UHGV virus genome: UHGV-0126007
Source: a virus
DNA length: 21,383 nucleotides
Strand: one strand, 5' to 3'
The stretch's first letter is position 1. The number at the start of each line of letters is the position of its first letter. Shown here piece by piece: positions 30 to 21,383 of this stretch. Under the pieces are notes generated by a model that made no database searches, was not told the DNA's origin, and saw nothing but the letters and a program-made list of their open reading frames with translations. Position numbers and translations under genes: made by a program.

Positions 30-134
30 TGAATCCGTTGAAGCCTGCTTTTTTATACTAAGTTGGCATTATAAAAAAGCATTGCTTATCAATTTGTTGC
101 AACGAACAGGTCACTATCAGTCAAAATAAAATCA
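30..134. other. attL: Prophage left attachment site attL (bacterial B arm - core - phage P' arm); 15-bp lambda core GCTTTTTTATACTAA at 47-61
   Basis: Exact lambda att core. Left flank CCGTTGAAGCCT matches the bacterial attB arm rather than lambda P arm; right flank GTTGGCATTATAAAAAAGCATTGCTTATCAATTTGTTGCAACGAACAGG is the lambda P' arm. int lies immediately adjacent. Confidence 0.85.
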
Positions 135-1205
135 TTATTTGATTTCAATTTTGTCCCACTCCCTGCCTCTGTCATCACGATACTGTGATGCCATGGTGTC
201 CGACTTATGCCCGAGAAGATGTTGAGCAAACTTATCGCTTATCTGCTTCTCATAGAGTCTTGCAGACAAACTGCGCAACTCGTGAAAGGTAGGCGGATCC
301 CCTTCGAAGGAAAGACCTGATGCTTTTCGTGCGCGCATAAAATACCTTGATACTGTGCCGGATGAAAGCGGTTCACGACGAGTAGATGCAATTATGGTTT
401 CTCCGCCAAGAATCTCTTTGCATTTATCAAGTGTTTCCTTCATTGATATCCCGAGAGCATCAACATGCAATGTTGTTGGGATGGCAATTTTTACGCCTGT
501 TTTGCTTTGCTCGACATAAAGATATCCATCTACGATATCAGACCACTTCATTTCGCATAAATCACCAACTCGTTGCCCGGTAACAACAGCCAGTTCCATT
601 GCAAGTCTGAGCCAACATGGTGATGATTCTGCTGCTTGATAAATTTTCAGGTATTCGTCAGCCGTAAGTCTTGATCTCCTTACCTCTGATTTTGCTGCGC
701 GAGTGGCAGCGACAGGGTTTGTTGTTATATGGCCTTCAGCTATTGCCTCTCGGAATGCATCGCTCAGTGTTGATCTGATTAACTTGGCTGACGCCGCCTT
801 GCCCTCGTCTATGTATCCATTGAGCATTGCCGCAATTTCTTTTGTGGTGATGTCTTCAAGTGGAGCATCAGGCAGACCCCTCCTTATTGCTTTAATTTTG
901 CTCATGTAATTTATGAGTGTCTTCTGCTTGATTCCTCTGCTGGCCAGGATTTTTTCGTAGCGATCAAGCCATGAATGTAACGTAACGGAATTATCACTGT
1001 TGATTCTCGCTGTCAGAGGCTTGTGTTTGTGTCCTGAAAATAACTCAATGTTGGCCTGTATAGCTTCAGTGATTGCGATTCGCCTGTCTCTGCCTAATCC
1101 AAACTCTTTACCCGTCCTTGGGTCCCTGTAGCAGTAATATCCATTGTTTCTTATATAAAGGTTAGGGGGTAAATCCCGGCGCTCATGACTTCGCCTTCTT
1201 CCCAT
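135..1205 (-). CDS. int: Phage lambda integrase (tyrosine recombinase), 356 aa
   Basis: Translation MGRRRSHERRDLPPNLYIRNNGYYCYRDPRTGKEFGLGRDRR...HLLGHKSDTMASQYRDDRGREWDKIEIK is essentially lambda Int from recall; adjacent to attL and overlapped by xis. Confidence 0.97.
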   Translation of the reverse strand: MGRRRSHERRDLPPNLYIRNNGYYCYRDPRTGKEFGLGRDRRIAITEAIQANIELFSGHKHKPLTARINSDNSVTLHSWLDRYEKILASRGIKQKTLINYMSKIKAIRRGLPDAPLEDITTKEIAAMLNGYIDEGKAASAKLIRSTLSDAFREAIAEGHITTNPVAATRAAKSEVRRSRLTADEYLKIYQAAESSPCWLRLAMELAVVTGQRVGDLCEMKWSDIVDGYLYVEQSKTGVKIAIPTTLHVDALGISMKETLDKCKEILGGETIIASTRREPLSSGTVSRYFMRARKASGLSFEGDPPTFHELRSLSARLYEKQISDKFAQHLLGHKSDTMASQYRDDRGREWDKIEIK

Positions 1206-1996: not shown

Positions 1997-2092
1997 GTTT
2001 CACACACGTTAAGATTAACAGTGTTTTTACATGCTTTGGGAGATTTATTTTATAAAAACTCTTTTAATACAAATAGATATAATAGTTCACTA

Positions 2093-2890: not shown

Positions 2891-2900
2891 TTGTTAGTCC

Positions 2901-4283: not shown

Positions 4284-4381
4284 CTTCCATTAATCCCTGA
4301 ATTGTTGGTTAATACGCTTGAGGGTGAATGCGAATAATAAAAAAGGAGCCTGTAGCTCCCTGATGATTTTGCTTTTCATGT

Positions 4382-4663: not shown

Positions 4664-4673
4664 TCAGTGGTTG

Positions 4674-6480: not shown

Positions 6481-6485
6481 TCGTT

Positions 6486-6782: not shown

Positions 6783-6857
6783 GGCTGAACTCCTGAAAAT
6801 GGCTGTGAAAATATCGCCCGCGAAATGCCAGGCTGATTAGGTAAACAGGAAAGGGGA

Positions 6858-7148: not shown

Positions 7149-7339
7149 AACTAAGCCGCCTCGTTGAAGCGACTAAGGTATGAAATGTTGAGTTGATTTC
7201 AGCTGGTCACACCGACGTTCACGCGTCCGTTTCATCCCTCGCACTACCCGAAGCCTGCTGAAATTCAAGCTGCGGATCTAAGCGGTCATCGCAACGGTGA
7301 AACAGGTGGTTACCGTATCGTTGTGTCGTTGCGATGAAT

Positions 7340-7420
7340 TTATTTAAAACTATAGTTGTTTTATCGTCAACAACAAAAGTTGTTTTATCGGTTGTTTTAA
7401 ATATAACTGGTTGTATTTAG
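7340..7420 (-). promoter_or_regulatory. PL promoter with OL operators (leftward early promoter)
   Basis: On the minus strand: -35 TTGACG (plus 7365-7370), 17-nt spacer, -10 TTAAAT (plus 7342-7347). Promoter and spacer are nearly identical to the predicted PR (TTGACT-17 nt-TAATCT). Flanked by repeated GTTGTTTTA / AACAAC half-sites similar to the OR half-site GGTTGTT. Confidence 0.6.
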
Positions 7421-7508
7421 GATGGATTTATTTTGTGACTTGCATCGCATAGCGATAACTGAAGTGAGGTCGTGGTGGTTTTTTGAACGGTGTGTGATGA
7501 GGGGAGGG

Positions 7509-7536
7509 CAAAATAAAACCCGGCACGGTGGCCGGG
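7509..7536 (-). terminator. Rho-independent terminator ending the cI-cargo operon (tImm-like)
   Basis: Stem CCCGGC / GCCGGG (7519-7536) with 6-nt loop; on the minus strand it is followed by UUUUAUUUUG. Sits downstream of the 147-aa gene and upstream of PL. Confidence 0.7.
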
Positions 7537-7613
7537 TTTAGATGATTGGTTAAGAGCGAGGGTAATGGGGAATGAAAAATCGCTTTACCTAATGCAAGGG
7601 TGCGAGCATTTTC

Positions 7614-8057
7614 TTAAGCACTAAAGAAAAAGTACATTGATAGCTTATAAAGTCCTGTTCCTGCAGCGATGATTGCTGGAACACCAAGCAATACCGCAAG
7701 CTTTGCGTCTGAAATCTTTCTATCGACAGCATCACTTGATGGCTTGTTTGTTAAGGATTCTTTTATAGAGTCCAGACGTGCAAGAATAGTTATCATATTT
7801 TTGTCGATAGCTTTAACGTCTGTTTTAAGTTCATCAACGTCTCGTTTGATATGAGCAACATCGGACTCCAGTTTTGCAACTTTTTCAGGCATGTTATCAC
7901 TCCCAGACCCACTGCTACCACTTGATTGTAGCATGTCCCATCTTTTTCCAGATATACCTGCTAGCTGGGAAGACGCACTGGAGTGCAAACAAAATGATTT
8001 TGCCGCCTTTGCAATTTTATCATTTAGGTTTGGAGCTTCGTAATAATCGTGTTTCAT
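7614..8057 (-). CDS. Tail-anchored coiled-coil membrane protein, 147 aa (rex-position cargo gene B)
   Basis: Gly/Ser-rich linker (SSGSSGSGSDN), heptad-like coiled coil (KVAKLESDVAHIKRDVDELKTDVKAIDKNMITILARLDSIKESL), C-terminal hydrophobic helix (LAVLLGVPAIIAAGTGLY). Architecture resembles XhlA-type phage membrane proteins (analogy only). AT-rich by eye. Confidence 0.5.
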   Translation of the reverse strand: MKHDYYEAPNLNDKIAKAAKSFCLHSSASSQLAGISGKRWDMLQSSGSSGSGSDNMPEKVAKLESDVAHIKRDVDELKTDVKAIDKNMITILARLDSIKESLTNKPSSDAVDRKISDAKLAVLLGVPAIIAAGTGLYKLSMYFFFSA

Positions 8058-8069
8058 AATTAATTACGA

Positions 8070-8333
8070 TTAGTTTGTTTTAGCTTTGTCATGCTGGTCG
8101 CGAATGAAGTCAGCCAATTTAAGCATCAATTCTTCGGGCATTCTAATGGTTGCAATGTTGTACTTTATGTTCTCAACATCGTCACTTTCATCAACAGGCC
8201 ATTCAGTTACATTATGAAAAAAAGAAATTGAACCTAGGCGCTGAGAGCCGTCACCAAACGAAGAGTAGCCAAACGCGTCGGCGTATGCATCGACACAGTT
8301 ATTTGATTTTTTAACAAGTGTTTTATTACTCAT
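8070..8333 (-). CDS. Hypothetical small soluble protein, 87 aa (rex-position cargo gene A)
   Basis: ORF directly downstream of cI on the same strand and 12 nt upstream of gene B; AT-rich; no recognisable family. Confidence 0.45.
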   Translation of the reverse strand: MSNKTLVKKSNNCVDAYADAFGYSSFGDGSQRLGSISFFHNVTEWPVDESDDVENIKYNIATIRMPEELMLKLADFIRDQHDKAKTN

Positions 8334-8415
8334 TTTTTGCCTTTCCCGTAATGTTATTTTTTATAAGGTATTTTCTTCAGCGTATTACCCAAAAGCCTCA
8401 TCAACACGCGGCTGA

Positions 8416-9105
8416 TTATCCGTGTTTTCTGTACGTCTGCGGCATGCTCCCAATAACCTTACCGAATATGAATACCCGGTTCATCTCGTCTTTCTCGATC
8501 GGGTCCCACGGTGAGTAGCTCTTGTTATCAGAGATAACCAGTAGCTTATCCTTCATCATTTGCAGGCGCTTTACATGGGCGGTGTCGTCATACAGAAACG
8601 CATAGATGCCATCACCGTCGAAAGATTTAACAGTGATATCAACGAACAGCAGGTCACCTGGTTCGATCGTCCCTGACATGCTGTCACCTCGCACGTTAAT
8701 GATGCGGATATTTTCCGCCTTCCTGCCATCGAACATGTGACGAGCATCGTCAAACGAGTACTCAACCGAGCGTAGAACTTCTACAAACTCACGGTTGATT
8801 ACACCTGGCCCGGCACTGACTTCTATATCAAGAACGTCAATTTTGAAGTATTTGGAATGGCTGACAGTTGATTGTATTGGTTGCACTGTACTGTCTGACA
8901 TATTTCCAACGCCAGAAGATAACCATTCTGCGCGTACACCCAAAGCGTTCGCGATCTCCACGATTTTAGTTGTTTGGTTAGCTTTCCCTGTTTCGATTTT
9001 CTGAATAGCAGCCTGGCTAACCCCGACCAAATCCCCAAGCGCCTTTTGTGTAAGGCCTCGCGCTAATCTGGCTTCTTTAAGTCTTTCTGAGAGTGTTGTT
9101 TTCAT
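8416..9105 (-). CDS. CI-like prophage repressor (N-terminal XRE-type HTH, C-terminal S24/LexA-like autopeptidase domain), 229 aa
   Basis: HTH region LTQKALGDLVGVSQAAIQKIETGK; C-terminal domain with the S24 nucleophile motif (NVRGDSMSGTI) and downstream Lys (HVKRL); divergent from a Cro-like gene across an operator region. Confidence 0.85.
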   Translation of the reverse strand: MKTTLSERLKEARLARGLTQKALGDLVGVSQAAIQKIETGKANQTTKIVEIANALGVRAEWLSSGVGNMSDSTVQPIQSTVSHSKYFKIDVLDIEVSAGPGVINREFVEVLRSVEYSFDDARHMFDGRKAENIRIINVRGDSMSGTIEPGDLLFVDITVKSFDGDGIYAFLYDDTAHVKRLQMMKDKLLVISDNKSYSPWDPIEKDEMNRVFIFGKVIGSMPQTYRKHG

Positions 9106-9209
9106 AGATCAAATGTACAACCAAGGTTTTATTTCATCAAACGAAAATGGTTGTTGACTAAAAACAACCATAGTTTTAATCTTGATTCGGATTAACCACG
9201 GAGGTTGTT
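9106..9209. promoter_or_regulatory. OR region: divergent PRM/PR promoters with operators
   Basis: PR: -35 TTGACT (9154-9159), 17-nt spacer, -10 TAATCT (9177-9182). Operator with 9-bp inverted repeat ATGGTTGTT-N7-AACAACCAT (9147-9171) overlapping the -35; SD GGAGG before cro. Confidence 0.65.
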
Positions 9210-9440
9210 ATGAACCCAGCAATCAAAACAGCGATCAATATCGTTGGTTCACAAAAGAAACTAGGCGATGCCTGCGAAGTTTCACAGCAGGCCGTCTATA
9301 AGTGGCTTCACAACAAAGCAAAGGTATCCCCTGAACATGTCGGCAGCATTGTTACGGCTACTGGTGGAGTTGTGAAGGCATACCAGATTCGCCCGGATCT
9401 TCCGAAGTTGTTTCCACACACCGAAAAGAACGCAGCTTAA
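9210..9440 (+). CDS. Cro-like HTH regulator (Cro/YdaS-type), 76 aa
   Basis: Small HTH protein (GDACEVSQQAVYKWL) transcribed divergently from the repressor from the PR-like promoter. Confidence 0.7.
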   Translation: MNPAIKTAINIVGSQKKLGDACEVSQQAVYKWLHNKAKVSPEHVGSIVTATGGVVKAYQIRPDLPKLFPHTEKNAA

Positions 9441-9452
9441 ATTTCCATTTCA

Positions 9453-9465
9453 CGCTCTTTAACAA
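9453..9465 (+). promoter_or_regulatory. boxA-like antitermination element (CGCTCTTTAACAA) in the rightward early transcript
   Basis: Matches the boxA consensus CGCTCTT(T)A and, from recall, nearly the whole rrn boxA (GCTCTTTAACAA) 13 nt after the cro stop; no boxB-like hairpin follows. Confidence 0.5.
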
Positions 9466-9509
9466 TAAGCAATCAACTTAACAGTCAATTCAAACTAAAG
9501 GAGTCAATT

Positions 9510-10049
9510 ATGCAACCACTTACATACCAACAGACTAGCGGATTTATTCCGACTGCGGTGATAAATCGTTCTCAAACAAAACAAGCTCCAGGCCACGAAA
9601 AAATCCGTGATGCCGTCCGCGCCTGGTCGGCTGTAGATAATCAGGATGTCGTTGCCGCACTCATTGTGAATGAGTATCGGGAGCAGGGCGACGGCACCAT
9701 CGATTTCCCTGATGATGTCAGCCGTGCACGCCAGAAGCTGTTCCGCTTCCTCGATAACAAATTCGATTCTGAAAAATACCGAAATAACGTGCGTGAACTG
9801 ACCCCGGCAATTCTGGCGGTACTACCGCTGGAATATCGCGGTTACCTGGTTGAGCAGGATAGCTTCATGACTCGGTTGGCTGAAATGGAAAAGGAACTCA
9901 GTGAGGCAAAACAGGCTGTCATTCTCAACGCACCACGCCACCAGAAACTGAAGGAAATGAGTGAAGGTATTGTGTCGATGTTTCGTGTGGACCCGGATCT
10001 GGCTGGTCCATTAATGGCGATGGTGACCACCATGCTGGGGGCAATATGA
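9510..10049 (+). CDS. Protein in the cII position, 179 aa; possibly a YdaT-family CII analogue
   Basis: Gene order repressor / Cro-like / this ORF / replication genes. Segment TPAILAVLPLEYRGYLV is reminiscent of YdaT-family proteins (weak, memory-based). Not lambda CII. Confidence 0.3.
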   Translation: MQPLTYQQTSGFIPTAVINRSQTKQAPGHEKIRDAVRAWSAVDNQDVVAALIVNEYREQGDGTIDFPDDVSRARQKLFRFLDNKFDSEKYRNNVRELTPAILAVLPLEYRGYLVEQDSFMTRLAEMEKELSEAKQAVILNAPRHQKLKEMSEGIVSMFRVDPDLAGPLMAMVTTMLGAI

Positions 10050-10135
10050 CAGGTCCAGAAATGGCGAAAGTCGGTCTGCGGGAACAGAACCGACTTTCAG
10101 GTGCAAATCGTAACACACTCATTGCGGGAGGAATT

Positions 10136-11065
10136 ATGGCAAACACTGCTGAGATATTCAATTTTCCAGTGCCGGATGCGGCACAAAAGGAGCCGCGCGT
10201 GGCAGATCTCGATGATGGTTATACGCGCATTGCAAATGAGTTGCTGGAAGCTGTGATGCTGGCCGGATTAACACAGCACCAGCTTCTGGTCTTCCTGGCT
10301 GTCATGCGCAAAACATATGGCTTTAATAAAAAACTGGATTGGGTGAGCAACGAGCAACTTTCCGAGTTGACCGGGATATTGCCGCACAAGTGTTCTGCTG
10401 CAAAAAGTGTTCTGGTAAAGCGTGGGATTTTTATTCAGAGCGGGCGGAATATCGGCATTAATAATGTGGTCAGTGAATGGTCAACATTACCCGAATCAGG
10501 TAAGAAAAATAAAGTTTACCTGAAAGAGGTAAATTTACCTGAATCAGGTAAGAAAAGTTTACCCAAATCAGGTAAAGGCACTTACCCGAATCAGGTAAAC
10601 ACAAAAGACAAACTAACAAAAGACAATATAAAACCTTATTCGTCCGAGAATTCTGGCGAATACTCTGACCAGCCAGAAAACGACCTTCCTGTGGTGAAAC
10701 CGGATGCTGCGATTCAGAGCGGCAGCAAGTGGGGGACAGCAGAAGACCTGACCGCCGCAGAGTGGATGTTTGACATGGTGAAGACCATCGCGCCATCAGC
10801 CAGAAAACCGAATTTTGCAGGGTGGGCTAACGATATCCGCCTGATGCGTGAGCGTGACGGGCGTAACCACCGCGATATGTGTGTACTGTTCCGCTGGGCA
10901 TGCCAGGACAACTTCTGGTCCGGTAACGTGCTGAGTCCGGCCAAACTCCGCGACAAGTGGACCCAGCTCGAAATCAACCGAAACAAGCAACAGGCTGGCG
11001 TGACAGCCGGCAAACCAAAACTCGACCTGACGAACACTGACTGGATTTACGGGGTGGATTTATGA
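10136..11065 (+). CDS. O: Replication initiator O: non-lambda N-terminal origin-binding domain with lambda-type C-terminal P-interaction domain; the frame is open from 10046
   Basis: N-terminus MANTAEIFNF...VADLDDGYTRIANELLEA...RKTYGFNK follows the lambda O pattern but is divergent. C-terminus WANDIRLMRERDGRNHRDMCVLFRWACQDNFWSGNVLSPAKLRDKWTQLEINRNKQQAGV...DWIYGVDL matches lambda O. Start preferred at ATG 10136 with SD GGGAGGAA. Confidence 0.85.
   Translation: MANTAEIFNFPVPDAAQKEPRVADLDDGYTRIANELLEAVMLAGLTQHQLLVFLAVMRKTYGFNKKLDWVSNEQLSELTGILPHKCSAAKSVLVKRGIFIQSGRNIGINNVVSEWSTLPESGKKNKVYLKEVNLPESGKKSLPKSGKGTYPNQVNTKDKLTKDNIKPYSSENSGEYSDQPENDLPVVKPDAAIQSGSKWGTAEDLTAAEWMFDMVKTIAPSARKPNFAGWANDIRLMRERDGRNHRDMCVLFRWACQDNFWSGNVLSPAKLRDKWTQLEINRNKQQAGVTAGKPKLDLTNTDWIYGVDL
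10487..10640. repeat. ori: Replication origin inside the O gene: four to five ~18-bp iterons plus adjacent AT-rich region
   Basis: Direct repeats TTACCCGAATCAGGTAAG, TTTACCTGAATCAGGTAAG, TTTACCCAAATCAGGTAAA, CTTACCCGAATCAGGTAAA plus a degenerate copy, each with internal dyad TTACC...GGTAA, followed by ACAAAAGACAAACTAACAAAAGACAATATAAAACC; same layout as lambda ori. Confidence 0.85.
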
Positions 11066-11763
11066 AAAACATCGCCGCACAGATGGTTAACTTTGACCGT
11101 GAGCAGATGCGCCGGATCGCCAACAATATGCTGGAACAGTACGACGAAAAGCCGCAGGTACAGCAGGTAGCGCAGATCATCAACGGTGTGTTCAGCCAGT
11201 TACTGGCAACTTTCCCTGCGAGCCTGGCTAACCGGGATCAGAACGAACTGAACGAAATCCGCCGCCAGTGGGTTCTGGCTTTCCGGGAAAACGGGATCAC
11301 CACAATGGAACAGGTTAACGCAGGAATGCGCGTAGCCCGTCGGCAGAATCGACCATTCCTGCCATCACCCGGGCAGTTTGTTGCATGGTGCCGGGAAGAA
11401 GCATCCGTTATCGCCGGACTGCCAAACGTCAGCGAGCTGGTTGATATGGTTTACGAGTATTGCCGGAAGCGAGGCCTGTATCCGGATGCGGAGTCTTATC
11501 CGTGGAAATCAAACGCGCACTACTGGCTGGTTACCAACCTGTATCAGAACATGCGGGCCAATGCGTTGACTGACGCGGAATTACGGCGCAAGGCTGCCGA
11601 TGAACTGTCCTGTATGACCGCACGAATTAACCGTGGTGAGGCTATACCTGAACCAGTAAAACAACTTCCTGTCATGGGCGGTAGACCACTTAACCGGGCT
11701 CAGGCTCTGGCGAAGATCGCAGAAATCAAAGCTAAGTTCGGACTGAAAGGAGCCAGTGTATGA
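11062..11763 (+). CDS. P: Lambda P replication protein (DnaB helicase loader), 233 aa
   Basis: MKNIAAQMVNFDREQMRRIANNMLEQYDEKPQVQQVAQIINGVFSQLLATFPASLANRDQNELNEIRRQW...AKFGLKGASV matches lambda P; start overlaps O stop. Confidence 0.95.
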   Translation: MKNIAAQMVNFDREQMRRIANNMLEQYDEKPQVQQVAQIINGVFSQLLATFPASLANRDQNELNEIRRQWVLAFRENGITTMEQVNAGMRVARRQNRPFLPSPGQFVAWCREEASVIAGLPNVSELVDMVYEYCRKRGLYPDAESYPWKSNAHYWLVTNLYQNMRANALTDAELRRKAADELSCMTARINRGEAIPEPVKQLPVMGGRPLNRAQALAKIAEIKAKFGLKGASV

Positions 11764-12053
11764 CAGGCAAAGAGGCAATTCTTCACTACCTGAAAACGCA
11801 CCGGACTTTCTGCGCGCCGGATGTAGCTGCGGCAACAGGCGCAACAGTAACCAGCATAAATCAGGCTGCGGCTAAAATGGCGCGGGCAGGAATCTTGGTC
11901 ATTGATGGTAAGGTCTGGCGAACGGTGTATTACAGATTCGCTACCAGGGAAGAACGGGAAGGAAAGGTGAGCACTAACCTGATTTTTAAGGAGTGTCGCC
12001 AGAGTGCCGCGATGAAGCGGGTGTTGATGGTTTGGGGGAGGGTAGGGGTATGA
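11760..12053 (+). CDS. ren: Lambda Ren, 97 aa
   Basis: MTGKEAILHYLKTHRTFCAPDVAAATGATVTSINQAAAKMARAGILVIDGKVWRTVYYRFATREEREGK... closely matches lambda Ren from recall. Confidence 0.85.
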   Translation: MTGKEAILHYLKTHRTFCAPDVAAATGATVTSINQAAAKMARAGILVIDGKVWRTVYYRFATREEREGKVSTNLIFKECRQSAAMKRVLMVWGRVGV

Positions 12054-12250
12054 GCATGATGGATTTCGCAGAAACTAAAAAGGCTATCGACGCCATCACA
12101 ACCGACTGGTCTATCCGAGGACCGTATCACGAAGACGACGGGAAATATTACGCCTTGCTTCGTGGAGAGTGGGTTGGTGGCGGGTATATCGGAAAACGGA
12201 AAGCCCTTGATGCCATTCTCGAAAAGTTAATCCAGGAGGCCGCCCAATGA
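12050..12250 (+). CDS. Hypothetical nin-region protein, 66 aa
   Basis: ATG at 12050 overlaps the ren stop (ATGA); the ORF continues in frame to 12250 and its stop overlaps the next start. Confidence 0.4.
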   Translation: MSMMDFAETKKAIDAITTDWSIRGPYHEDDGKYYALLRGEWVGGGYIGKRKALDAILEKLIQEAAQ

Positions 12251-12477
12251 GCAACATCGACAAACCAATGACAAACCGTGAACTGGTGGATGCCGCCATT
12301 GAATTGGCCGGAGAGTTTTATGCGATGCAGGGCTATTCGCATCGTCCTGGCTTCAAGTATTGGCAATCTCCGCACCCGCATGAGCGCCTGTGCTTTGAAA
12401 TGGCTTGCGTGGCATTCGAAACCATTCGCGGCTCAGATGTAATGGACGCCGTATCTGAGTTGGAGGATGAAGAATGA
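12247..12477 (+). CDS. Hypothetical protein, 76 aa (starts MSNIDK, as does the next gene)
   Basis: Translationally coupled ORF (ATGA overlaps at both ends); shares the N-terminal MSNIDK with the downstream Ead/Ea22-like ORF. Confidence 0.45.
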   Translation: MSNIDKPMTNRELVDAAIELAGEFYAMQGYSHRPGFKYWQSPHPHERLCFEMACVAFETIRGSDVMDAVSELEDEE

Positions 12478-12887
12478 GCAACATCGACAAACGCGCATTA
12501 CGTGAAATCGCTGAGGCAGCAGTTGGTGCGCATGAGCGCCTTAGTGTTATGCCGCCTGATGACATTTTCGATATCTCACTGGCAGAAGGAACTCAGCTTG
12601 ATGCAGATATCACTGCCTTGAACGCGCTGAACTCCGCAGCCAACCCAGCCACAGTGCTGGCGCTGCTGGATGAGCTGGAAGCCAAAGACCAGAGGATTGC
12701 TGTGCTGACCGAATCGCTCAAGCAGACGGTTTCAGGATACAAATCCTGCCTGCGTACCGGACATGAGCGCATTCTTGACCTTGGCGGTGACTGTGACGCG
12801 CCAGAAGTGATGATTGCAGGCAATCCTGACATTCAGCAGGCGCAGAAGCTGATCGCCGCCGCATCCGGTAAAGGAGAGGCATCATGA
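12474..12887 (+). CDS. Ead/Ea22-like family protein, 137 aa (paralogue of 3658-4065)
   Basis: Contains SAANPATVLALLDELEAKDQRIAVLTESL, matching the motif in the minus-strand ORF at 3658-4065. Confidence 0.5.
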   Translation: MSNIDKRALREIAEAAVGAHERLSVMPPDDIFDISLAEGTQLDADITALNALNSAANPATVLALLDELEAKDQRIAVLTESLKQTVSGYKSCLRTGHERILDLGGDCDAPEVMIAGNPDIQQAQKLIAAASGKGEAS

Positions 12888-13690
12888 GCACTATTACCAA
12901 ACAATGGCTGCAGCAGAAAATTGCCGACATGGAAGCAGCCAGAGATGAAATCCCGTTCGGTCTGGACGAAGGCGACAGCAACACGCTGGCGGCACTGCGT
13001 ATCGCGCTGGCATCGCTCGAAGCGGAGCCTGCCATTCACCGGTGGCGTCGTGTGACCTCTGAGCCATACGGCCCCTATCCTTGGCATTATGGTGATTTTA
13101 TCGGCTTCTCAAAGCCCGTTGATGGGATTGAGGATGAGTATTTTTACTCCGCCCCGCCAGAGCCAGCCAATGCCGAAACCGTAGCCTGGCTGTGGTCACA
13201 CAGGAAACACCCGAGCGAAGTCACGCTTGTTCGCCCTGAAGATGATGAGAGAGCGGAGGGTGCTCACTGGTCTGGCTGGAGTTGTCAGGCGCTTTATGCA
13301 GCACCGCCAGTTCCGGTATCTGTGCCCACATTCGAGAAATGGTGTGAGTTGACTGAGCAGAAACCTGTCGGATGGGTGCGTGATGCTATGAAAGAAGCGT
13401 ATGACGGATGCCGCGACGCCATGCTTCAGGGTGCCGAAAAAGCCGAGTCGCCCACCACCATGCAGACCGCGCCAGCCCTAGATTCTTCGCCAAAAATTTC
13501 CGAGTCGCCCGTCAGCAACTCTCCGGTGATTCCGGATGGTTGGGTGCTGGTTCCTAAGGAGCCAACTCCAGAAATGCGTGAGGCGTACCATCAGGCGCAG
13601 GAAGAGTGTGAAGATGGCGGTAGATTATGGAGCCCAGACCACCAATGGAAGGCCATGATCGCAGCAGCACCGCAGCAGGAGGCGAAGTGA
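12884..13690 (+). CDS. Lambdoid accessory protein, 268 aa; shares N-terminal and NSPVIPDGW segments with 2093-2890
   Basis: N-terminus MSTITKQWL...LAALRIALASLEAE parallels MTTITKERI...ELARIALASLEREL of the minus-strand protein; shared NSPVIPDGW; C-terminal VPKEPTPEMREAYHQAQ...WKAMIAAAP. Confidence 0.5.
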   Translation: MSTITKQWLQQKIADMEAARDEIPFGLDEGDSNTLAALRIALASLEAEPAIHRWRRVTSEPYGPYPWHYGDFIGFSKPVDGIEDEYFYSAPPEPANAETVAWLWSHRKHPSEVTLVRPEDDERAEGAHWSGWSCQALYAAPPVPVSVPTFEKWCELTEQKPVGWVRDAMKEAYDGCRDAMLQGAEKAESPTTMQTAPALDSSPKISESPVSNSPVIPDGWVLVPKEPTPEMREAYHQAQEECEDGGRLWSPDHQWKAMIAAAPQQEAK

Positions 13691-13741
13691 TTATGTCGTG
13701 ACAGCATAATTGCGATGTCAACGATAAGCAGAGGTTTGAAA

Positions 13742-13936
13742 ATGAAATCACAATCACCAGTGCAGCATGAAGTTAACATCGACGGCAAAGAGTATGTTGT
13801 CACAGTAGTCCAAACCGGCAAGTCAACGTGGAGGGCATGGGGAGATTCCTGGGGGCGCCATATAGTCGAAACAGGTTCTAGCGAACATAGCGCGCTTTCT
13901 CATTGGAAAGCAAAAGCTTTAGTTATGAATGGGTAG
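13742..13936 (+). CDS. Hypothetical small protein, about 64 aa (the frame is open from 13715)
   Basis: ORF with SD-like AGAGG about 9 nt upstream of ATG 13742; no recognisable family. Confidence 0.35.
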   Translation: MKSQSPVQHEVNIDGKEYVVTVVQTGKSTWRAWGDSWGRHIVETGSSEHSALSHWKAKALVMNG

Positions 13937-13949
13937 CGCGGAAACTTTG

Positions 13950-13985
13950 AAGGTATAATCCCCTCAAATAATCGAGGGGGTTTTT
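13950..13985 (+). promoter_or_regulatory. Hairpin (CCCCTC...GAGGGGG + T-run) immediately upstream of the moron start codon, with a TATAAT hexamer just upstream
   Basis: TATAAT at 13953-13958, then stem CCCCTC / GAGGGG with 8-nt loop and TTTTT running into the ATG at 13986; the 3' arm GAGGGGG doubles as the likely Shine-Dalgarno. Confidence 0.45.
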
Positions 13986-14495
13986 ATGTCTGGTTGGGAT
14001 AACGGTATAGATGCAGTTTCTGCGATTGCAGCTATCGCATCTGCGGTAGCAACTTATTTAGCATGGCGATCCTCAGAAGCTAGCAGGGCCACATCCGAAA
14101 AAGCTTTGCAGTTGCAAGGAAAGCAGTATTTGTACGAGACATTAAAAGCTTGCGCTGAGAGAGCGAATTCATACTCAAAAGGAAAGAAAGGGGCTGACTG
14201 GAGCTTTCATGACGCAGCCAATATTGTTCGATGTTTGAACATGGCAATGGGGAGCATAATAAATTACTCAGATACCAACAATCAGGATGCAATGAAAGGT
14301 CTGAAGCAATTCTTTATTAGTCAATTAAACATGGAGCTTTTTGAAGAGCTCAACTATGAGGTTGGGCCTGATGCCTTCTTTCACGGAGAGGAGCTAACCA
14401 GCATGACGAGCGATATTTACTCGCAGTGGTTAAACATTATTTCATTCTTTAACCTCATGATTGTCACAGATGATGACCTCGCCGATGAAACATAG
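13986..14495 (+). CDS. Membrane-anchored protein of unknown function, 169 aa (AT-rich moron in nin region)
   Basis: N-terminal hydrophobic helix (AVSAIAAIASAVATYLAW) followed by about 140 aa of soluble domain; composition visibly more AT-rich than flanking genes; bracketed by a hairpin upstream and a 187-bp non-coding spacer downstream. Confidence 0.55.
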   Translation: MSGWDNGIDAVSAIAAIASAVATYLAWRSSEASRATSEKALQLQGKQYLYETLKACAERANSYSKGKKGADWSFHDAANIVRCLNMAMGSIINYSDTNNQDAMKGLKQFFISQLNMELFEELNYEVGPDAFFHGEELTSMTSDIYSQWLNIISFFNLMIVTDDDLADET

Positions 14496-14682
14496 CTTGA
14501 TTGATTTTCCATAATCAACCCGCCATAATCATGTCATCGGAGCCTGAACAACTCCGGTGACTTCTGCGCTAAACGGGGACGTTTATGCGCACATACAATC
14601 CAAACTCACTTCTCCCGTCACAGATGCAGAAATGCACCTGCGATTTTTTGTATTCTGCGTTTTACCTCTACGGAGGTGAAGC

Positions 14683-15138
14683 GTGAACCTCCCACAAGAC
14701 GGCATCAAACTACATCGCGGCAACTTCACCGCTATCGGCCAGCAGATCCAGCCTTATCTGGAGGACGGAAAATGCTTTCGCATGGTGCTTAAACCGTGGC
14801 GTGAGAAACGCAGTCTTTCCCAGAATGCACTCAGCCACATGTGGTACAGCGAAATCAGTGAATACCTCATCAGCAGGGGTAAAACGTTCGCCACTCCAGC
14901 TTGGGTAAAAGATGCTCTCAAACACACATATCTCGGTTATGAAACCAAAGACCTGGTTGATGTCGTAACCGGTGATATCACCACTATCCAGTCGTTACGC
15001 CATACCTCCGACCTTGATACCGGAGAGATGTATGTCTTCCTGTGTAAGGTTGAAGCCTGGGCGATGAATATTGGCTGCCACCTGACTATTCCGCAGAGCT
15101 GCGAGTTCCAGCTGCTGCGTGATAAGCAGGAGGCGTAA
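14683..15138 (+). CDS. ybcN: YbcN-like protein (DUF1367, DLP12 ybcN homologue), 151 aa, GTG start
   Basis: [55 protein letters not shown]... recalled as DLP12 YbcN; SD GGAGG upstream of the GTG. Confidence 0.7.
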
Positions 15139-15308
15139 TGGCTACACCGCTTATTCGTGTCATGAACGGACACATCTACAAAGTACCAAATCGTCGTAAG
15201 CGTAAGCCTGAGCTGAAACCATCCGAAATACCAACACTGCTCGGATATACCGCCAGCCTGGTTGATAAAAAATGGTTGCGACTGGCAGCTAGGAGGAATC
15301 ATGGCTGA
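15138..15308 (+). CDS. ninE: NinE-family small protein, 56 aa (below the ORF-track size cutoff)
   Basis: Hand translation from ATG 15138 (overlapping the ybcN stop): [56 protein letters not shown]; basic, NinE-like; its stop overlaps the ybcO start. Confidence 0.6.
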   Translation: MATPLIRVMNGHIYKVPNRRKRKPELKPSEIPTLLGYTASLVDKKWLRLAARRNHG

Positions 15309-15591
15309 TTTGAGAAAAGCAGCGCGTGGTCGGGAATGCCAGGTAAGAATCCCTGGCGTATGTAATGGCAATCCTGAAACGTCTGTACTGGCACATATCC
15401 GGCTGGCTGGATTGTGCGGTACCGGTATCAAACCGCCAGACCTGATTGCCACCATTGCATGTTCTGCCTGTCACGACGAGATCGACCGTCGCACGCATTT
15501 TGTTGACGCTGGATATGCAAAAGAATGCGCGCTGGAAGGTATGGCGAGAACGCAGGTTATCTGGCTGAAAGAGGGGGTAATTAAGGCGTGA
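15301..15591 (+). CDS. ybcO: YbcO-like protein (DUF1364, putative nuclease), 96 aa
   Basis: [64 protein letters not shown]... matches DLP12 YbcO from recall; the frame is open from 15262, ATG 15301 preferred. Confidence 0.75.
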
Positions 15592-15950
15592 ATACCTACA
15601 ATATCACATTACCCTGGCCGCCGAGCAATAATCGCTATTACCGCCATAATCGCGGGCGCACGCACATCAGCGCAGAGGGGCAGGCATACCGCGAAAACGT
15701 CGCCCGAATCATTAAAAACGCAATGCTGGATATCGGCCTGGCTATGCCTGTGAAAATCCGCATTGAGTGTCACATGCCGGATCGCCGTCGCCGTGACCTG
15801 GATAATCTACAAAAGGCCGCTTTTGACGCACTCACCAAAGCAGGTTTCTGGCTGGATGATGCTCAGGTCGTTGATTACCGCGTTGTGAAGATGCCGGTTG
15901 TCAAAGGTGGAAAGCTGGAACTGACCATCACTGAACAGGGAGATGAATGA
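15588..15950 (+). CDS. rusA: RusA Holliday-junction resolvase, 120 aa
   Basis: [100 protein letters not shown]... matches E. coli prophage RusA. Confidence 0.93.
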
Positions 15951-16087
15951 TGTTTGAGTTTTATATGGCAGAACTTCTTCGCCACCGCTGGATGCGCCTG
16001 CGCTTATATCGTTTCCCCGGTTCTGTTTTGACCGATTACCGAATACTGAAGAATTACGCCAAAACACTGACAGGAGCAGGAGTATGA
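15947..16087 (+). CDS. ylcG: YlcG-like small protein, 46 aa (below the ORF-track cutoff)
   Basis: Hand translation [46 protein letters not shown]; start overlaps the rusA stop, as for ylcG between rusA and quuD in DLP12. Confidence 0.55.
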
Positions 16088-16172
16088 AGTCAGAGATAAC
16101 AATCAACTAATACTGTTTTGTTGATTTTTGCTTGTAATTGGCGTTCTGGTCTGAGTTTTGTGGAGTAAGTTG

Positions 16173-16556
16173 ATGCGTGATATTCAGATGGTTCTTGAGC
16201 GTTGGGGAGCGTGGGCGGCTAATAATCATGAAGATGTGACCTGGTCGTCCATTGCCGCCGGTTTTAAGGGATTAATTCCTTCAAAAGTAAAATCTCGCCC
16301 ACAATGTTGTGACGATGACGCGATGATCATTTGCGGGTGCATGGCCCGTCTGAAAAAGAACAACAGCGATTTGCACGATTTATTAGTAGATTATTATGTA
16401 GTCGGTATGACATTCATGTCACTGGCAGGTAAGCATTGCTGCTCTGATGGTTATATCGGGAAAAGGTTACAAAAGGCTGAGGGCATAATTGAAGGGATGT
16501 TAATGGCATTAGATATCCGGTTAGAGATGGATATCGTTGTTAATAACTCTAATTAA
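16173..16556 (+). CDS. quuD: Late-gene antiterminator Q (phage 82 / DLP12 QuuD type), 127 aa
   Basis: [90 protein letters not shown]... matches QuuD from recall; the ORF-track TTG at 16158 is probably not the real start. Confidence 0.88.
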
Positions 16557-16589
16557 TACGCCAATTATTTACTAAAAGTTATTAAAAAT

Positions 16590-16730
16590 GGGGCGTTGAA
16601 ACGCCCCCAAAAATAAAGGGTAATATATAACAGAAGGTTTGTATAGTTAGAAGCAAGGTTGTGCTTCTAAAGGAAGTGGCTTGAGGGAGCCACTTATATG
16701 TTGGGGAGGCAAAGCCTCCCACAACATATC
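16590..16730. promoter_or_regulatory. Cluster of four GC-rich hairpins between convergent Q and porin genes; candidate late promoter PR'/qut and terminators
   Basis: Hairpins at 16590-16607 (GGGGCG/CGCCCC), 16649-16668 (AGAAGCA/TGCTTCT), 16676-16693 (GTGGCT/AGCCAC), 16700-16725 (GGGAGGC/GCCTCCC). Possible -35 TTGAAA (16596-16601) and -10 TAATAT (16621-16626), with a -10-like TATAGT in the initial transcribed region. Confidence 0.4.
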
Positions 16731-16744
16731 TTTTAGTAATCAAA

Positions 16745-17827
16745 TTAGAACTGGTAAACCATACCTACAGCAACGATATCATCGGTAGCAACGCCAGATG
16801 CTTTCGTGAAATCGCTCTTATCAATCAGGTTGATTTTGTAGTCAACAAAAGTGGACATATTTTTGTTGAAGTAATAGGTTGCACCTACATCAACATATTC
16901 AACCAGGTCCTGATCACCCCAAACACCCAAGTCTTTTCCTTTAGAATGCAGGTAAGCAACGGATGGACGCAGGCCGAAGTCGAACTGATATTGTGCAACA
17001 GCTTCGAAGTTTTGTGCTTTGTTGGCAATATGGTTATTACCAAAAACAGTCATGTTCTGGGTTTCAGAATAGGTGGTGGCCAGATAGATGTTGTTCGCAT
17101 CATATTTCAGACCAGCTGCCCATACTTCAGCATTTTGACCAGAAGCATTCAGACCGTTGTTACCGTAGATAACCTGATTATTAGTGCGATCAGATTTAGC
17201 ATAGGTTGCACCCACGCCGAATCCTTCATACTCATAAGTAGTTGAGAAACCGAAACCATCGCCATTAGCTTCAGTTACTTCATTTCGGTCATTTTTGCCC
17301 TGATACTGAGCTGCAAAGTTCAGGCCATCAACCAGACCAAAGAAGTCGTTGTTACGATAAGTTGCAACACCTGTGGTGCGACCAGTCATGAATACATCTG
17401 TTTGGGTCCAGGTATCGCCACCGAATTCTGGCAGAACGTCAGTCCACGCACCGATGTCGTATGCTACACCGTAGTTACGGCCGTAATCGATTGAGCCGTA
17501 GTCACCGAATTTCAGGCCTGCAAATGCAAGACGGGTTTTGTCTTTGGAGGAACCTTGAGATTCAGCGCGGTTGCCTTTGAATTCATATTCCCACTGACCG
17601 AAACCAGTCAGTTGATCGTTGATTTGGGTTTCACCTTTGAAGCCAAGACGGGCATAAGTAGTATCACCATCATCTGCATCATTAGAGGAGAAGTAGTGCT
17701 TAGCATTAACTTTCCCGTACAGATCCAGCTTGTTACTGTCTTTATTATAAATTTCAGCTGCCTGAGCAGACATCGCCATCAGTACTGATGCAGCTACAGC
17801 AGAAATTGCCACTGTTAATTTTTTCAT
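16745..17827 (-). CDS. nmpC: Phage-borne general porin of the OmpC/OmpF family (NmpC / Lc type), 360 aa, apparently intact
   Basis: Signal peptide [23 protein letters not shown] then [17 protein letters not shown]...; typical porin beta-strand repeats; C-terminal aromatic (F); same position and orientation as nmpC between quuD and essD in DLP12. Confidence 0.85.
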
Positions 17828-18254
17828 CGTGAGCCCTTTTTTTTGAACTATTATTAAAAAATGATGTCACTGCGCGATAAATATTCATCTAATCAATATG
17901 ATTATTTCAAGATGTAAGTTTTGGTTTCTCGTTTGATTTGTGAAGTAGATCTCTATTTTTATCTGAACTTTTTCTATCGAATCCTATTCATGGCTCTTGG
18001 CTGAATAAAAATAAATCTATTAGCCAATTTATATTAACGGTTGTTATTTATAAGTGCTCTATGATTTGAAGGTTCAATTTAAATCGGCTAAAAATAACAC
18101 TGGGAATTATTTGTTGGTTATTTGTTGAGATTTGCTTATGTATTTGTGGTGGTGTTTTCAATACTCGGTAGCATTCTCGCAAATATCATTTAGTGGTTTA
18201 CGTACGTAAAAAATTGGTTATGCTGTTAAGAGTGGTTACTTCGTCACACAGCTT

Positions 18255-18287
18255 AAACCCGCCGTCGAGTGGGTTTTTCCATTTTTT
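18255..18287 (+). terminator. Terminator-like hairpin with T-run about 110 bp upstream of the holin gene
   Basis: Stem AAACCC / GGGTTT (18255-18276) with 10-nt loop, followed by TTCCATTTTTT. Confidence 0.4.
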
Positions 18288-18399
18288 GAGTCTCGATATT
18301 AGCTGATAACCCAATACCTGAGTTATTCACTGACTCCGAGTCTGTTACGTTTCGTAGTATTCCCTCAATTTACACCCGCTTTGTCTGCGAGGTGGGGTT

Positions 18400-18615
18400 A
18401 TGAAATCCATGGATAAGTTAACAACGGGTGTCGCCTATGGCACCTCAGCAGGTAGTGCCGGTTACTGGTTTTTACAGCTGCTCGATAAAGTCACGCCCTC
18501 ACAGTGGGCAGCAATAGGTGTGCTGGGTAGCCTGGTATTTGGCCTGCTGACGTACCTGACAAACCTTTATTTCAAGATTAAAGAAGATAAGCGCAAGGCT
18601 GCGAGAGGTGAATAA
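18400..18615 (+). CDS. essD: S21-type pinholin with dual-start motif (antiholin from Met1, holin from Met4), 71 aa
   Basis: [71 protein letters not shown] matches S21/EssD from recall; two TM segments; SD GAGGTGG. Confidence 0.9.
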
Positions 18616-19112
18616 TGCCTCCATCATTACGAAAAGCCGTTGCTGCTGCTATTGGTGGCGGAGCAATTGCTATAGCATCAGTGTTAATCACTGGCCCAAG
18701 TGGTAACGATGGTCTGGAAGGTGTCAGCTACATACCATACAAAGATATTGTTGGTGTATGGACTGTATGTCACGGGCATACAGGAAAAGACATCATGCTC
18801 GGTAAAACGTATACCAAAGCAGAATGCAAAGCCCTCCTGAATAAAGACCTTGCCACGGTCGCCAGACAAATTAACCCGTACATAAAAGTTGATATACCGG
18901 AAACAACGCGCGGCGCTCTTTACTTGTTCGTTTACAACGTGGGCGCTGGCAATTTCAGAACATCGACGCTTCTTCGCAAAATAAACCAGGGCGATATCAA
19001 AGGCGCATGTGATCAGCTACGTCGCTGGACATATGCTGGCGGTAAGCAATGGAAAGGTCTCATGACTCGTCGTGAGATTGAGCGTGAAATCTGTTTGTGG
19101 GGTCAGCAATGA
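18615..19112 (+). CDS. rrrD: SAR (signal-arrest-release) endolysin, lysozyme family (R21 / RrrD type), 165 aa
   Basis: N-terminal Gly/Ala-rich SAR helix ([18 protein letters not shown]); catalytic triad at E35, D44, T50 ([18 protein letters not shown]), as recalled for R21; start overlaps the holin stop. Confidence 0.9.
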
Positions 19113-19573
19113 ACAGAGTAACCGCGATTATCTCCGCTCTGGTTATCTGCATCATCGTTTGCCTGTCATGGGCTGTTAATCATTACCGTGATAACGCCAT
19201 CGCCTACAAAGAACAGCGCGACAAAAATGCCAGAGAACTGAAGCTGGCGAACGCGGCAATTACTGACATGCAGATGCGTCAGCGTGATGTTGCTGCGCTC
19301 GATGCAAAATACACGAAGGAGTTAGCTGATGCGAAAGCTGAAAATGATGTTCTGCGTGATGATGTTGCCGCTGGTCGTCGTCGGTTGCACATCAAAGCAG
19401 TCTGTCAGTCAGTGCGTGAAGCCACCACCGCCTCCGGCGTGGATAATGCAGCCTCCCCCCGACTGGCAGACACCGCTGAACGGGATTATTTCACCCTCCG
19501 GGAACGACTGGTAATGATGCAGGCCCAACTTGAAGGTGCTCAGCAATACATAACCGAGCAGTGTTTAAAGTAA
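19109..19573 (+). CDS. rzpD: Rz-type inner-membrane spanin (i-spanin), about 154 aa
   Basis: N-terminal TM helix ([20 protein letters not shown]) followed by coiled-coil periplasmic domain; ATG 19109 overlaps the endolysin stop. Confidence 0.85.
19329..19514 (+). CDS. rzoD: Rz1-type outer-membrane lipoprotein spanin (o-spanin), embedded in the +1 frame of Rz
   Basis: [23 protein letters not shown]...: lipobox LVVVGC, proline-rich mature part ([15 protein letters not shown]); wholly inside the Rz ORF. Confidence 0.85.
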
Positions 19574-19710
19574 AATCTTAACTACAATATGATTCATTTT
19601 GATGATTGTTTCATAAGGAACAGTGAAGTAAGATCTAAGAGGAGTTAAATTTTATACAGTATAATCATAATATTGCAGCAAGGTGGTTATAATTGAAAGA
19701 ATATTTAGAT

Positions 19711-21168
19711 ATGAATACATCTCATGTAAGAGTTGTTACTCATATGTGTGGGTTCCTGGTTTGGCTCTATAGTCTTTCAATGTTGCCACCAATGGTTGTA
19801 GCATTGTTTTATAAAGAAAAAAGCCTGTTCGTTTTCTTTATAACTTTCGTTATATTTTTTTGCATTGGTGGCGGAGCGTGGTATACAACTAAGAAATCTG
19901 GCATTCAATTACGTACCCGTGATGGGTTTATTATAATTGTAATGTTTTGGATTTTGTTTTCTGTTATTAGTGCATTCCCTTTATGGATTGACTCAGAACT
20001 TAATTTAACGTTCATTGATGCTCTGTTTGAAGGGGTTTCTGGAATAACAACAACAGGAGCAACTGTAATTGATGATGTTAGTTCATTACCTCGGGCATAT
20101 TTGTACTATCGGTCACAGTTAAATTTTATAGGTGGTTTAGGAGTTATTGTTCTGGCGGTTGCTGTATTGCCATTATTGGGTATTGGTGGTGCAAAGCTTT
20201 ATCAGTCAGAAATGCCGGGGCCATTTAAGGATGACAAACTCACTCCCCGCCTGGCCGATACGTCACGGACACTGTGGATAACTTATTCTTTATTAGGTAT
20301 TGCTTGTATTGTCTGTTATAGACTTGCAGGAATGCCTTTGTTTGATGCTATTTGTCACGGGATTTCCACAGTTTCGCTTGGTGGTTTCTCAACTCATAGC
20401 GAGAGTATCGGATATTTTAATAACTATTTGGTTGAGCTGGTGGCTGGTTCTTTTTCCCTGCTATCGGCTTTCAACTTCACTCTTTGGTATATTGTTATTA
20501 GCAGGAAAACGATAAAACCTTTAATCAGAGATATTGAACTTCGTTTCTTTCTGTTAATAGCCTTAGGGGTGATCATTGTTACCTCTTTCCAGGTCTGGCA
20601 TATAGGTATGTATGACTTGCATGGAAGTTTTATTCATTCGTTTTTTCTTGCCAGCTCCATGCTCACTGATAATGGTTTAGCTACGCAGGATTATGCAAGT
20701 TGGCCCACGCACACGATAGTGTTTTTGCTGTTGTCAAGTTTCTTTGGGGGATGTATAGGTTCAACTTGTGGTGGAATTAAGTCACTTCGATTTCTTATAC
20801 TTTTCAAACAAAGCAAACACGAGATAAATCAGCTTTCTCATCCCAGAGCGTTGTTGAGTGTAAATGTAGGAGGGAAGATAGTTACAGATCGTGTAATGAG
20901 GTCTGTATGGAGTTTCTTTTTTCTTTATACTCTCTTCACGGTGTTTTTTATACTGGTGTTAAATGGTATGGGATATGATTTTCTTACATCATTTGCAACA
21001 GTGGCTGCATGTATTAATAATATGGGATTAGGTTTTGGGGCTACTGCATCGTCATTCGGAGTGCTTAATGACATTGCAAAATGTTTAATGTGCATAGCTA
21101 TGATTCTTGGTCGCCTTGAAATTTATCCTGTTATTATATTGTTTTCAGGTTTTTTTTGGCGCTCCTAA
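19711..21168 (+). CDS. trkG: TrkG/TrkH-family potassium uptake membrane protein, about 485 aa (moron downstream of lysis cassette)
   Basis: MNTSHVRVVTHMCGFLVWLYSLSMLPPMVVALFYKE... matches E. coli TrkG (a Rac prophage gene) from recall; multiple TM segments; very AT-rich. An alternative TTG start at 19693 has a better-placed SD (AGGTGG). Confidence 0.9.
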   Translation: MNTSHVRVVTHMCGFLVWLYSLSMLPPMVVALFYKEKSLFVFFITFVIFFCIGGGAWYTTKKSGIQLRTRDGFIIIVMFWILFSVISAFPLWIDSELNLTFIDALFEGVSGITTTGATVIDDVSSLPRAYLYYRSQLNFIGGLGVIVLAVAVLPLLGIGGAKLYQSEMPGPFKDDKLTPRLADTSRTLWITYSLLGIACIVCYRLAGMPLFDAICHGISTVSLGGFSTHSESIGYFNNYLVELVAGSFSLLSAFNFTLWYIVISRKTIKPLIRDIELRFFLLIALGVIIVTSFQVWHIGMYDLHGSFIHSFFLASSMLTDNGLATQDYASWPTHTIVFLLLSSFFGGCIGSTCGGIKSLRFLILFKQSKHEINQLSHPRALLSVNVGGKIVTDRVMRSVWSFFFLYTLFTVFFILVLNGMGYDFLTSFATVAACINNMGLGFGATASSFGVLNDIAKCLMCIAMILGRLEIYPVIILFSGFFWRS

Positions 21169-21329
21169 TATATGGCTGATTTATAATTGTGAGTTTAATA
21201 TTATGTTGACTCACTCATTGATCCAATACCTAACTTTACCAGCAACCCCTCCGTCCCCAGTAGCACTGGCTGCTGGGGTGCGTTTTATTCATAAAGCAAG
21301 GCTGTATGAGCGAGAAATTAAAGATAGTC

Positions 21330-21383
21330 GGTAGTGACTCCAACTTACTGATAGTGCTTTATGTTCAGATAATGCCCGATGAC
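21330..21383 (-). mobile_element. Terminal 54 bp of an IS1 insertion sequence (inverted orientation), running off the window
   Basis: GGTAGTGACTCCAACTTACTGATAGTGCTTTATGTTCAGATAATGCCCGATGAC matches the reverse complement of the IS1 right end (GTCATCGGGCATTATCTGAACATAAAACACTATCAATAAGTTGGAGTCATTACC) with about 3 mismatches, from recall. Confidence 0.8.

Follow-up and report, generated by a model that had tools for sequence, protein, structure and literature searches.

UHGV-0126007 is a viral genome record of 21,383 nucleotides (nt), and throughout we refer to this whole stretch of DNA as the window. It comprises the greater part of a defective lambdoid prophage, its left end included, at the lambda attachment site (attB). 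Near its right end, directly behind the lysis genes, it carries trkG, which encodes the membrane subunit of a Trk-type potassium transporter and is best known from Rac, a prophage of Escherichia coli K-12. The features that bear on how trkG came to be in this prophage are as follows.

47..61, plus strand: lambda att core (attL), an exact match to GCTTTTTTATACTAA, with the ybhC flank adjoining
135..1205, minus strand: lambda-type tyrosine integrase of 356 amino acids (Pfam Phage_integrase, 1.7e-40; lambda arm-DNA-binding domain, 7.1e-33)
18400-18615, plus strand: P21-type holin (Pfam)
18615-19112, plus strand: phage lysozyme (Pfam)
19109..19573, plus strand: Rz i-spanin, Rac-type allele (Pfam Phage_lysis, 3.7e-53)
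19329-19514, plus strand: Rz1 o-spanin, embedded in Rz (Pfam Rz1, 2e-19)
19574..19710, plus strand: AT-rich spacer (25.5% G+C, GC) and trkG promoter region, identical to the K-12 Rac spacer
19711..21168, plus strand: trkG, Trk-system K+ transporter membrane subunit of 485 amino acids (Pfam TrkH, TIGR00933, identity to K-12)
21252..21289, plus strand: intrinsic-terminator-like hairpin and U-run after trkG (terminator scan, fold)
21306..21329, plus strand: first eight codons of ynaK (ParB/Srx family, Rac-type late arm), interrupted by IS1
21330..21383, strand not assigned: terminal 54 nt of IS1, running off the end of the window (identity to the ends of IS1X2)

The open reading frame (ORF) of this TrkH-family gene is intact from the ATG at 19711 to the stop at 21168 and directly follows Rz/Rz1. 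Pfam TrkH (PF02386) matches the protein at full length, with 484 bits against a gathering cutoff of 27 (5e-145) and residues 40-483 spanning profile positions 3-500 of 502, and all 485 of the 485 amino acids are identical to those of K-12 TrkG (b1363, P23849), so the preliminary description of this DNA was right to call a full-length TrkG/TrkH-type gene here. The two genes differ at only two nucleotides, both synonymous. The protein passes the NCBIfam model for the TrkH-family subfamily TIGR00933 (415.4 bits, cutoff 331.15) and reaches 449.7 bits with the TrkH equivalog model NF008020, which has a cutoff of 866; because this equivalog cutoff is not reached, the protein is, as judged by sequence, the TrkG paralogue rather than TrkH. 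The four pore loops with their selectivity-filter glycines are present (TTTG116AT, LGG225FS, DNG322LA and NNMGLG), as are the acidic residues D121, E231 and D327 that are typical of Na+-activated members (residue numbering from PMC9898762).

K-12 TrkG has been studied experimentally. It requires Na+ for K+ uptake and itself conducts Na+, in both respects unlike TrkH, and it is able to back up TrkH, while its transcription is reduced, not silenced, by H-NS and StpA (PMC9898762). Its partner is TrkA (PMC5811629). Since the proteins are identical, these results carry over to the gene in the window. TrkG also requires SapD (TrkE); neither TrkA nor SapD is encoded within the window. That trkG would give the lysogen an extra K+ uptake system, as first proposed, is what identity to the characterised K-12 protein predicts (PMC9898762). 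In comparison with TrkH, the core E. coli paralogue (a structure is available for TrkH of Vibrio parahaemolyticus), TrkG belongs to the same Pfam and TIGR family and has the same four pore loops with filter glycines, but its Na+ requirement and Na+ conduction set it apart (PMC9898762), as does a GC content of 38% versus 53%.

The composition of trkG is also unlike that of its surroundings. Its GC content is 38.1% (32.3% at third codon positions) versus 47.4% in the rest of the window, and all sliding windows of 1458 nt across the backbone lie above it (minimum 40.1%, mean 47.5%, standard deviation 3.8%), which bears out the strikingly AT-rich, foreign composition reported for it. That trkG is a foreign gene delivered by a phage is a long-standing view; in the passage of PMC9898762 that credits it to that paper's reference 33, the basis given is 38% versus 53% GC together with the location in Rac.

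The still more AT-rich spacer in front of trkG, described earlier as about 120 bp long, measures 119 bp from the Rz stop to a TTG at 19693 or 137 bp to the ATG at 19711, and it is 100% identical to the spacer in K-12 Rac. The longest ORF begins at the TTG, which is the start chosen by the annotators of the phage records (491 amino acids) and which has a Shine-Dalgarno-like AAGGTGG at 19680-19686, 6 nt ahead of it. K-12 and RefSeq annotations use the ATG (485 amino acids), which has a poor Shine-Dalgarno sequence. In the six extra codons of the TTG start, 4/15 nucleotide positions are changed in Escherichia albertii, in which the core of the spacer is conserved. The spacer contains two perfect TATAAT hexamers (19660-19665 and 19688-19693), both lacking good -35 partners. 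In K-12, genomic systematic evolution of ligands by exponential enrichment (SELEX) identified a constitutive sigma-70 (RpoD) promoter at trkG in Rac, among few such promoters in K-12 prophages, and the authors concluded that trkG and its promoter entered Rac together (PMC5811629). Promoter-reporter activity for trkG has been demonstrated as well (PMC9898762). Because the spacer is base for base the same, the K-12 trkG promoter is expected to be present in the window. Behind the gene, the hairpin at 21252-21282 and the U-run that follows it have a folding energy of -22.5 kcal/mol (z = -3.4), and the terminator scan found no terminator in front of trkG on the late-operon strand.

In Rac, trkG lies at ttcA with the same Rz/Rz1 tail upstream, ynaK downstream and 38% GC (PMC9898762). 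The prophage in the window is a lambda-attB element, not Rac. The 15-bp lambda att core is found exactly at 47-61, with 0 occurrences expected by chance, and the integrase has the lambda arm-binding domain, whereas Rac has another integrase gene, intR, which is 1236 nt long. Three complete genomes (QDFD216, 50EVAW and MIN9) are 100% identical to the window up to 21329, and in the two examined, QDFD216 and 50EVAW, the element lies between ybhC and ybhB-bioA with ybhC directly left of window position 1. The Rac site of 50EVAW is empty, with ttcA directly beside uspF. Together with the att core, the type of integrase and ybhC as the flank, the empty ttcA site in this closest relative excludes Rac, and the lambda int and attL named in the preliminary description are confirmed. 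The gene content agrees: the window has exo, bet, gam, an S24 repressor, O/P-type genes, quuD and a porin gene, in contrast to the intR, recET, racR and ydaS/T/U/V of Rac, and both its early region and its Q-porin region are of the lambda/DLP12 type. An alignment showing this to be Rac had been named as the outcome that would overturn the earlier account; when compared with EcPF14, a full-length Rac at ttcA, window positions 1-18383 have no megablast-level similarity.

The right end of the window is a different matter. Similarity to EcPF14 begins at 18384 and runs at 99-100% identity over 18384-21329, with 0 mismatches over 19160-21329, and K-12 Rac has only 8 mismatches in the 2201 nt of 19129-21329. 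As the preliminary description stated, trkG in K-12 directly follows the Rz-like genes rzpR/rzoR. It proposed that the Rz-trkG junction be compared with this one, and the comparison shows that the two are the same DNA, with the spacer 100% identical, which speaks against separate insertions. One difference is that Rz is full length in the window, while rzpR of K-12 is a truncated pseudogene. Past trkG, 50EVAW and QDFD216 continue with ynaK, two small genes and then the gene for the small terminase subunit, followed by a fragment of the large terminase gene; over 3274 nt, the ynaK-terminase arm in 50EVAW has 99.9% identity to Rac. In phage collections, the records with trkG also carry the adjoining ynaK-terminase block in 10/10 cases; the one that we examined is a predicted Rac-type prophage at ttcA.

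The same lambda-type backbone exists without the Rac-type arm. The lambda-attB prophage KKa014, a sibling, has the same backbone as the window from int as far as Rz (87% of the window covered at 97.9% identity), and the two depart after 19499, where KKa014 goes on to bor, ybcV, ybcW and a lambda-type nohD/terminase. Thus trkG does occupy the place where a prophage with the same backbone has bor, as had been suggested. Conversely, the Rz-trkG-ynaK-terminase block exists on other backbones and in all occurs at three attachment sites (ttcA, lambda attB and argU/DLP12). In the enterotoxigenic E. coli (ETEC) strain H10407 (NC_017633.1) it is part of a complete hybrid prophage at lambda attB, from int through tail gene J. 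In GF66.2 the block occupies the argU/DLP12 site, where it follows another holin and lysozyme, and the similarity to the window starts again exactly at the Rz start.

The element in the window is, on these alignments, a mosaic of a lambda/DLP12-type front and a Rac-type late arm, joined in the conserved lysis block. Because the spacer, the Rz tail and the ynaK-terminase flanks all match Rac, trkG appears to be part of one cargo block inherited with the Rac-type late arm, and because the same block occurs at other attachment sites and with other front ends, module exchange explains it better than repeated use of an insertion site. We therefore put at roughly 90% the probability that this is a hybrid lambda-attB prophage in which trkG was not inserted anew but rides on a Rac-type late arm brought in by recombination in the lysis block, a history of the arm that we infer, and in which the promoter and K+ uptake of the lysogen would be as in K-12. 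The earlier proposal that one insertion site behind the lysis genes is reused across lambdoid backbones stands in part: the slot behind the lysis genes does hold variable cargo, but an independent second insertion of trkG does not fit flanks that are Rac DNA.

Several points weigh against this interpretation. Between 18384 and 19160 the lysis cassette is patchwork-like, with scattered differences from the window in both comparators, and the exact crossover point cannot be placed. Among the hits sampled, none had Rz abutting ynaK, so the clean empty site that is the classic evidence for a moron (a cargo gene of a phage) is missing. The consensus scan for sigma-70 promoters found fewer promoter-like sites than in shuffled controls and no convincing promoter in the spacer, with a single weak match of 9/12 (19564-19593), so the promoter rests on the K-12 experiments with the identical spacer. 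Finally, the start of trkG may be either ATG 19711 or TTG 19693.

The way in which the hybrid would arise and work can be outlined. Lambdoid phages would recombine homologously inside the conserved holin-lysozyme-Rz block, joining a Rac-type late arm to a lambda-type front. The incoming arm would carry the Rac allele of Rz, the trkG cassette (promoter spacer, gene and terminator) and ynaK, behind which uninterrupted relatives have Rac-type terminase and P22-like head genes. In the lysogen, trkG would have its own transcription, driven by the sigma-70 promoter of the spacer, with H-NS on the AT-rich DNA damping this transcription without silencing it, and TrkG with host TrkA (and SapD/TrkE) would provide Na+-activated, low-affinity K+ uptake beside that of the core TrkH. 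The promoter, the H-NS effect and the transport properties are taken from the literature on the identical sequence and not from this analysis. In lytic growth, to judge from the layout alone, Q-modified polymerase should read through trkG toward the packaging genes, since the gene is on the late strand and has no terminator ahead of it.

Such read-through leads to the first of the alternatives, in which TrkG acts as a late protein that serves the phage, for instance by shifting the K+/Na+ balance or the membrane potential during lytic growth and so influencing holin timing or burst. We consider this improbable. If true, it could explain why, at three attachment sites, trkG stays joined to an Rz and packaging arm of the Rac type, and trkG would be more than a gene of benefit to the lysogen.

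A still less likely alternative is that trkG was inserted independently at the same post-lysis site of a lambda-type backbone, as a mobile cassette reusing a preferred site. Its position does equal that of bor in the sibling KKa014, the contents of the slot vary among relatives, and trkG is found behind different holin and lysozyme sets. However, both flanks of trkG are Rac DNA, with the spacer and Rz tail identical and ynaK through the large terminase gene at 99.9%, and all of Rz and the Rac-type packaging genes are in the block in every backbone examined. Beside the cassette there are no transposase, repeats or other insertion machinery.

We give very little credence to the idea that the element is Rac after all, or that trkG moved by chromosomal rearrangement between a resident lambda-site prophage and Rac. 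The right 2.9 kb of the window is indeed Rac-type at 99-100% identity, but the left side has the lambda att core, the lambda-type integrase and ybhC, with ybhB-bioA on the right in the relatives, and no similarity to Rac is found left of 18384. The Rac site of 50EVAW is cleanly empty, and gene order from one site to the other is normal where sampled, whereas an intrachromosomal exchange would delete or invert about 600 kb; moreover, a complete hybrid stands at lambda attB in ETEC H10407. It is just as hard to credit that trkG is functionless in this host, a passenger that is silenced or in decay, even though it lies in AT-rich DNA under H-NS repression (PMC9898762) and in a degraded prophage (IS1 in ynaK at 21330, no structural genes beyond the large-terminase fragment in relatives), since the intact ORF encodes the same protein that is expressed and transports K+ in K-12 (PMC9898762), at least 99% identity is kept in 1516 records that include heavily deleted prophages, and dN/dS (the ratio of nonsynonymous to synonymous substitution rates) is 0.047 in comparison with E. 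albertii.

To return to the hybrid prophage with a Rac-type arm, trkG with its flanks is widespread. It occurs in 1551/5426 complete E. coli genomes, almost always as a single copy, and the full junction is present in 1502 genomes. The hybrid layout of quuD, porin, lysis genes and trkG is found in 44 genomes, ETEC H10407 included. The H10407 hybrid (NC_017633.1, 862-903 kb) is a close counterpart of the window, with a lambda-type int at ybhC, quuD, a porin gene, essD-rrrD-Rz, trkG, ynaK and Rac-type terminase in common and 96.5% identity over window positions 15502-21329. Unlike the window lineage, which is truncated by IS1, it retains a virion arm complete as far as gpJ, and it differs in its immunity and early genes. 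We also observed trkG on 15 plasmid records (NZ_CP081691.1, hit H218, and ON032529.1, hit H104, are examples among the non-chromosomal hits), and at 99.4% identity in a record titled 'Salmonella phage SPF_0923'; these may represent phage-plasmids, misassemblies or true carriage across genera.

That trkG is intact even in eroded prophages, such as K-12 Rac and the IS1-truncated prophage of the window, argues that it is maintained by selection. The E. albertii copy is 92.6% identical in amino acids and 84.4% in nucleotides, which gives the low dN/dS stated above, and an unrelated chromosomal remnant in the type strain of E. albertii still has an intact trkG together with the spacer and about 30 nt from the end of Rz. 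An intact gene under strong purifying selection amid prophage decay is consistent with the domestication of a phage-borne transporter. In E. albertii NBRC 107761 (L012, 3690-5458) trkG has copC/copD/DUF2511 genes on one side and an NleF-like gene on the other, and its vicinity is otherwise free of phage genes. The synonymous divergence of the E. albertii gene, 0.93, is seemingly high for this pair of species and hints at separate acquisition from a diverged phage pool. Among species-representative genomes, the nearest homologues outside Escherichia are in Buttiauxella (68% amino acid identity) and Morganella (61-63%). These copies have an ordinary GC content of 47-51% and no Rz or ynaK neighbours, and no donor outside Escherichia can be named.

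The limits of the trkG cassette can be seen in relatives that have the ynaK arm without trkG. In two of these, F2_407_2_2 and 442/2, similarity to the window returns near position 21264, which falls within the 3' arm of the terminator hairpin, so this arm, just before ynaK, is the right edge of the trkG-specific DNA. On the left, the match of other Rz alleles to the window ends at 19498 or about 19550, and the count of full junctions is close to that of trkG itself; for these reasons we consider the last 25-75 nt of Rz to be linked to trkG. With respect to the criteria for morons, trkG has a distinct composition (38.1% vs 47.4% GC) and its own terminator (21252-21282). It resembles bor of lambda and DLP12 and other lambdoid morons in lying in the interval from Rz to packaging, in composition and in expression from the prophage. 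trkG differs from bor, which is on the opposite strand, in sharing the strand of the late operon and in having as its product a polytopic transporter subunit dependent on host partners; no clean empty site was found for it.

Much of this was already known: for the identical protein, trkG, its foreign origin, its promoter, its control by H-NS and its transport have been published, and the hybrid layout is present in annotated genomes. The value of the finding is mainly one of correct annotation, with trkG seen as the passenger of a module, from Rz to the packaging genes, that is transferred by recombination to various lambdoid front ends and attachment sites.

The end of the window itself probably reflects a further event in its strain. 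The same ynaK start leads in 50EVAW to a ParB/Srx protein of 263 amino acids, and the last 54 nt of the window (21330-21383), which begin with what we take to be the IS1 inverted repeat (GGTAGTGACTCCAACTTACTGATAGTG...), are 100% identical to the ends of IS1X2 in QDFD216. In QDFD216 and 50EVAW, otherwise identical to the window, ynaK is uninterrupted and IS1 is located 3.1 kb further on, within the large-terminase gene. Because IS1 of the relatives stands 3.1 kb beyond an intact ynaK, the window's strain has probably undergone an IS1-mediated adjacent deletion. The exact IS1-ynaK junction of the window was not seen in any complete genome examined.

Other parts of the window deserve brief mention. 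A DUF1317 gene on the minus strand (4838-5021) is frameshifted in the identical sequence of QDFD216 and intact in KKa014, a further sign of prophage decay. The 465 nt at 7149-7613, between a kil-like gene and an ORF of 147 amino acids to the left of the repressor, contain no ORF of at least 50 amino acids on either strand and have no Rfam match. Rfam at gathering thresholds and a tRNA scan found nothing in the whole window, and no N-like antiterminator gene was identified in it. The porin gene of the OmpC family (16745-17827, minus strand), on the opposite strand between quuD, which encodes the Q antiterminator, and the holin gene, is a second cargo gene, with a Pfam Porin_1 match of 3.6e-152 and 515 bits for the NCBIfam OmpC subfamily (cutoff 484). 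This position is the place of nmpC/lc in phages of the DLP12 and PA-2 types.

Lambdoid phages are known to carry variable cargo in the slot between their lysis and packaging genes. In F2_407_2_2 and 442/2, which lack trkG, the slot contains small ORFs or a pair of annotated enterotoxin-family genes. In 442/2 (L032, 3438-4575 and 370-1661) the pair consists of an 'enterotoxin A family protein' and an 'enterotoxin', and a subtilase-family AB5 toxin pair is present as well, upstream of the holins. Type II heat-labile toxins have been placed on Rac-type prophages in a report by Jobling, as cited in PMC5917428, and the genes in this slot are consistent with that citation. Rac-type phages have a second variable cargo slot, which lies between the replication and nin-like genes: there the EcPF14 Rac (L004, 12884-16277) has iteA/iteS, annotated as an anti-phage pair, and the Rac-site prophage of PK8566 has an AIPR-family gene.

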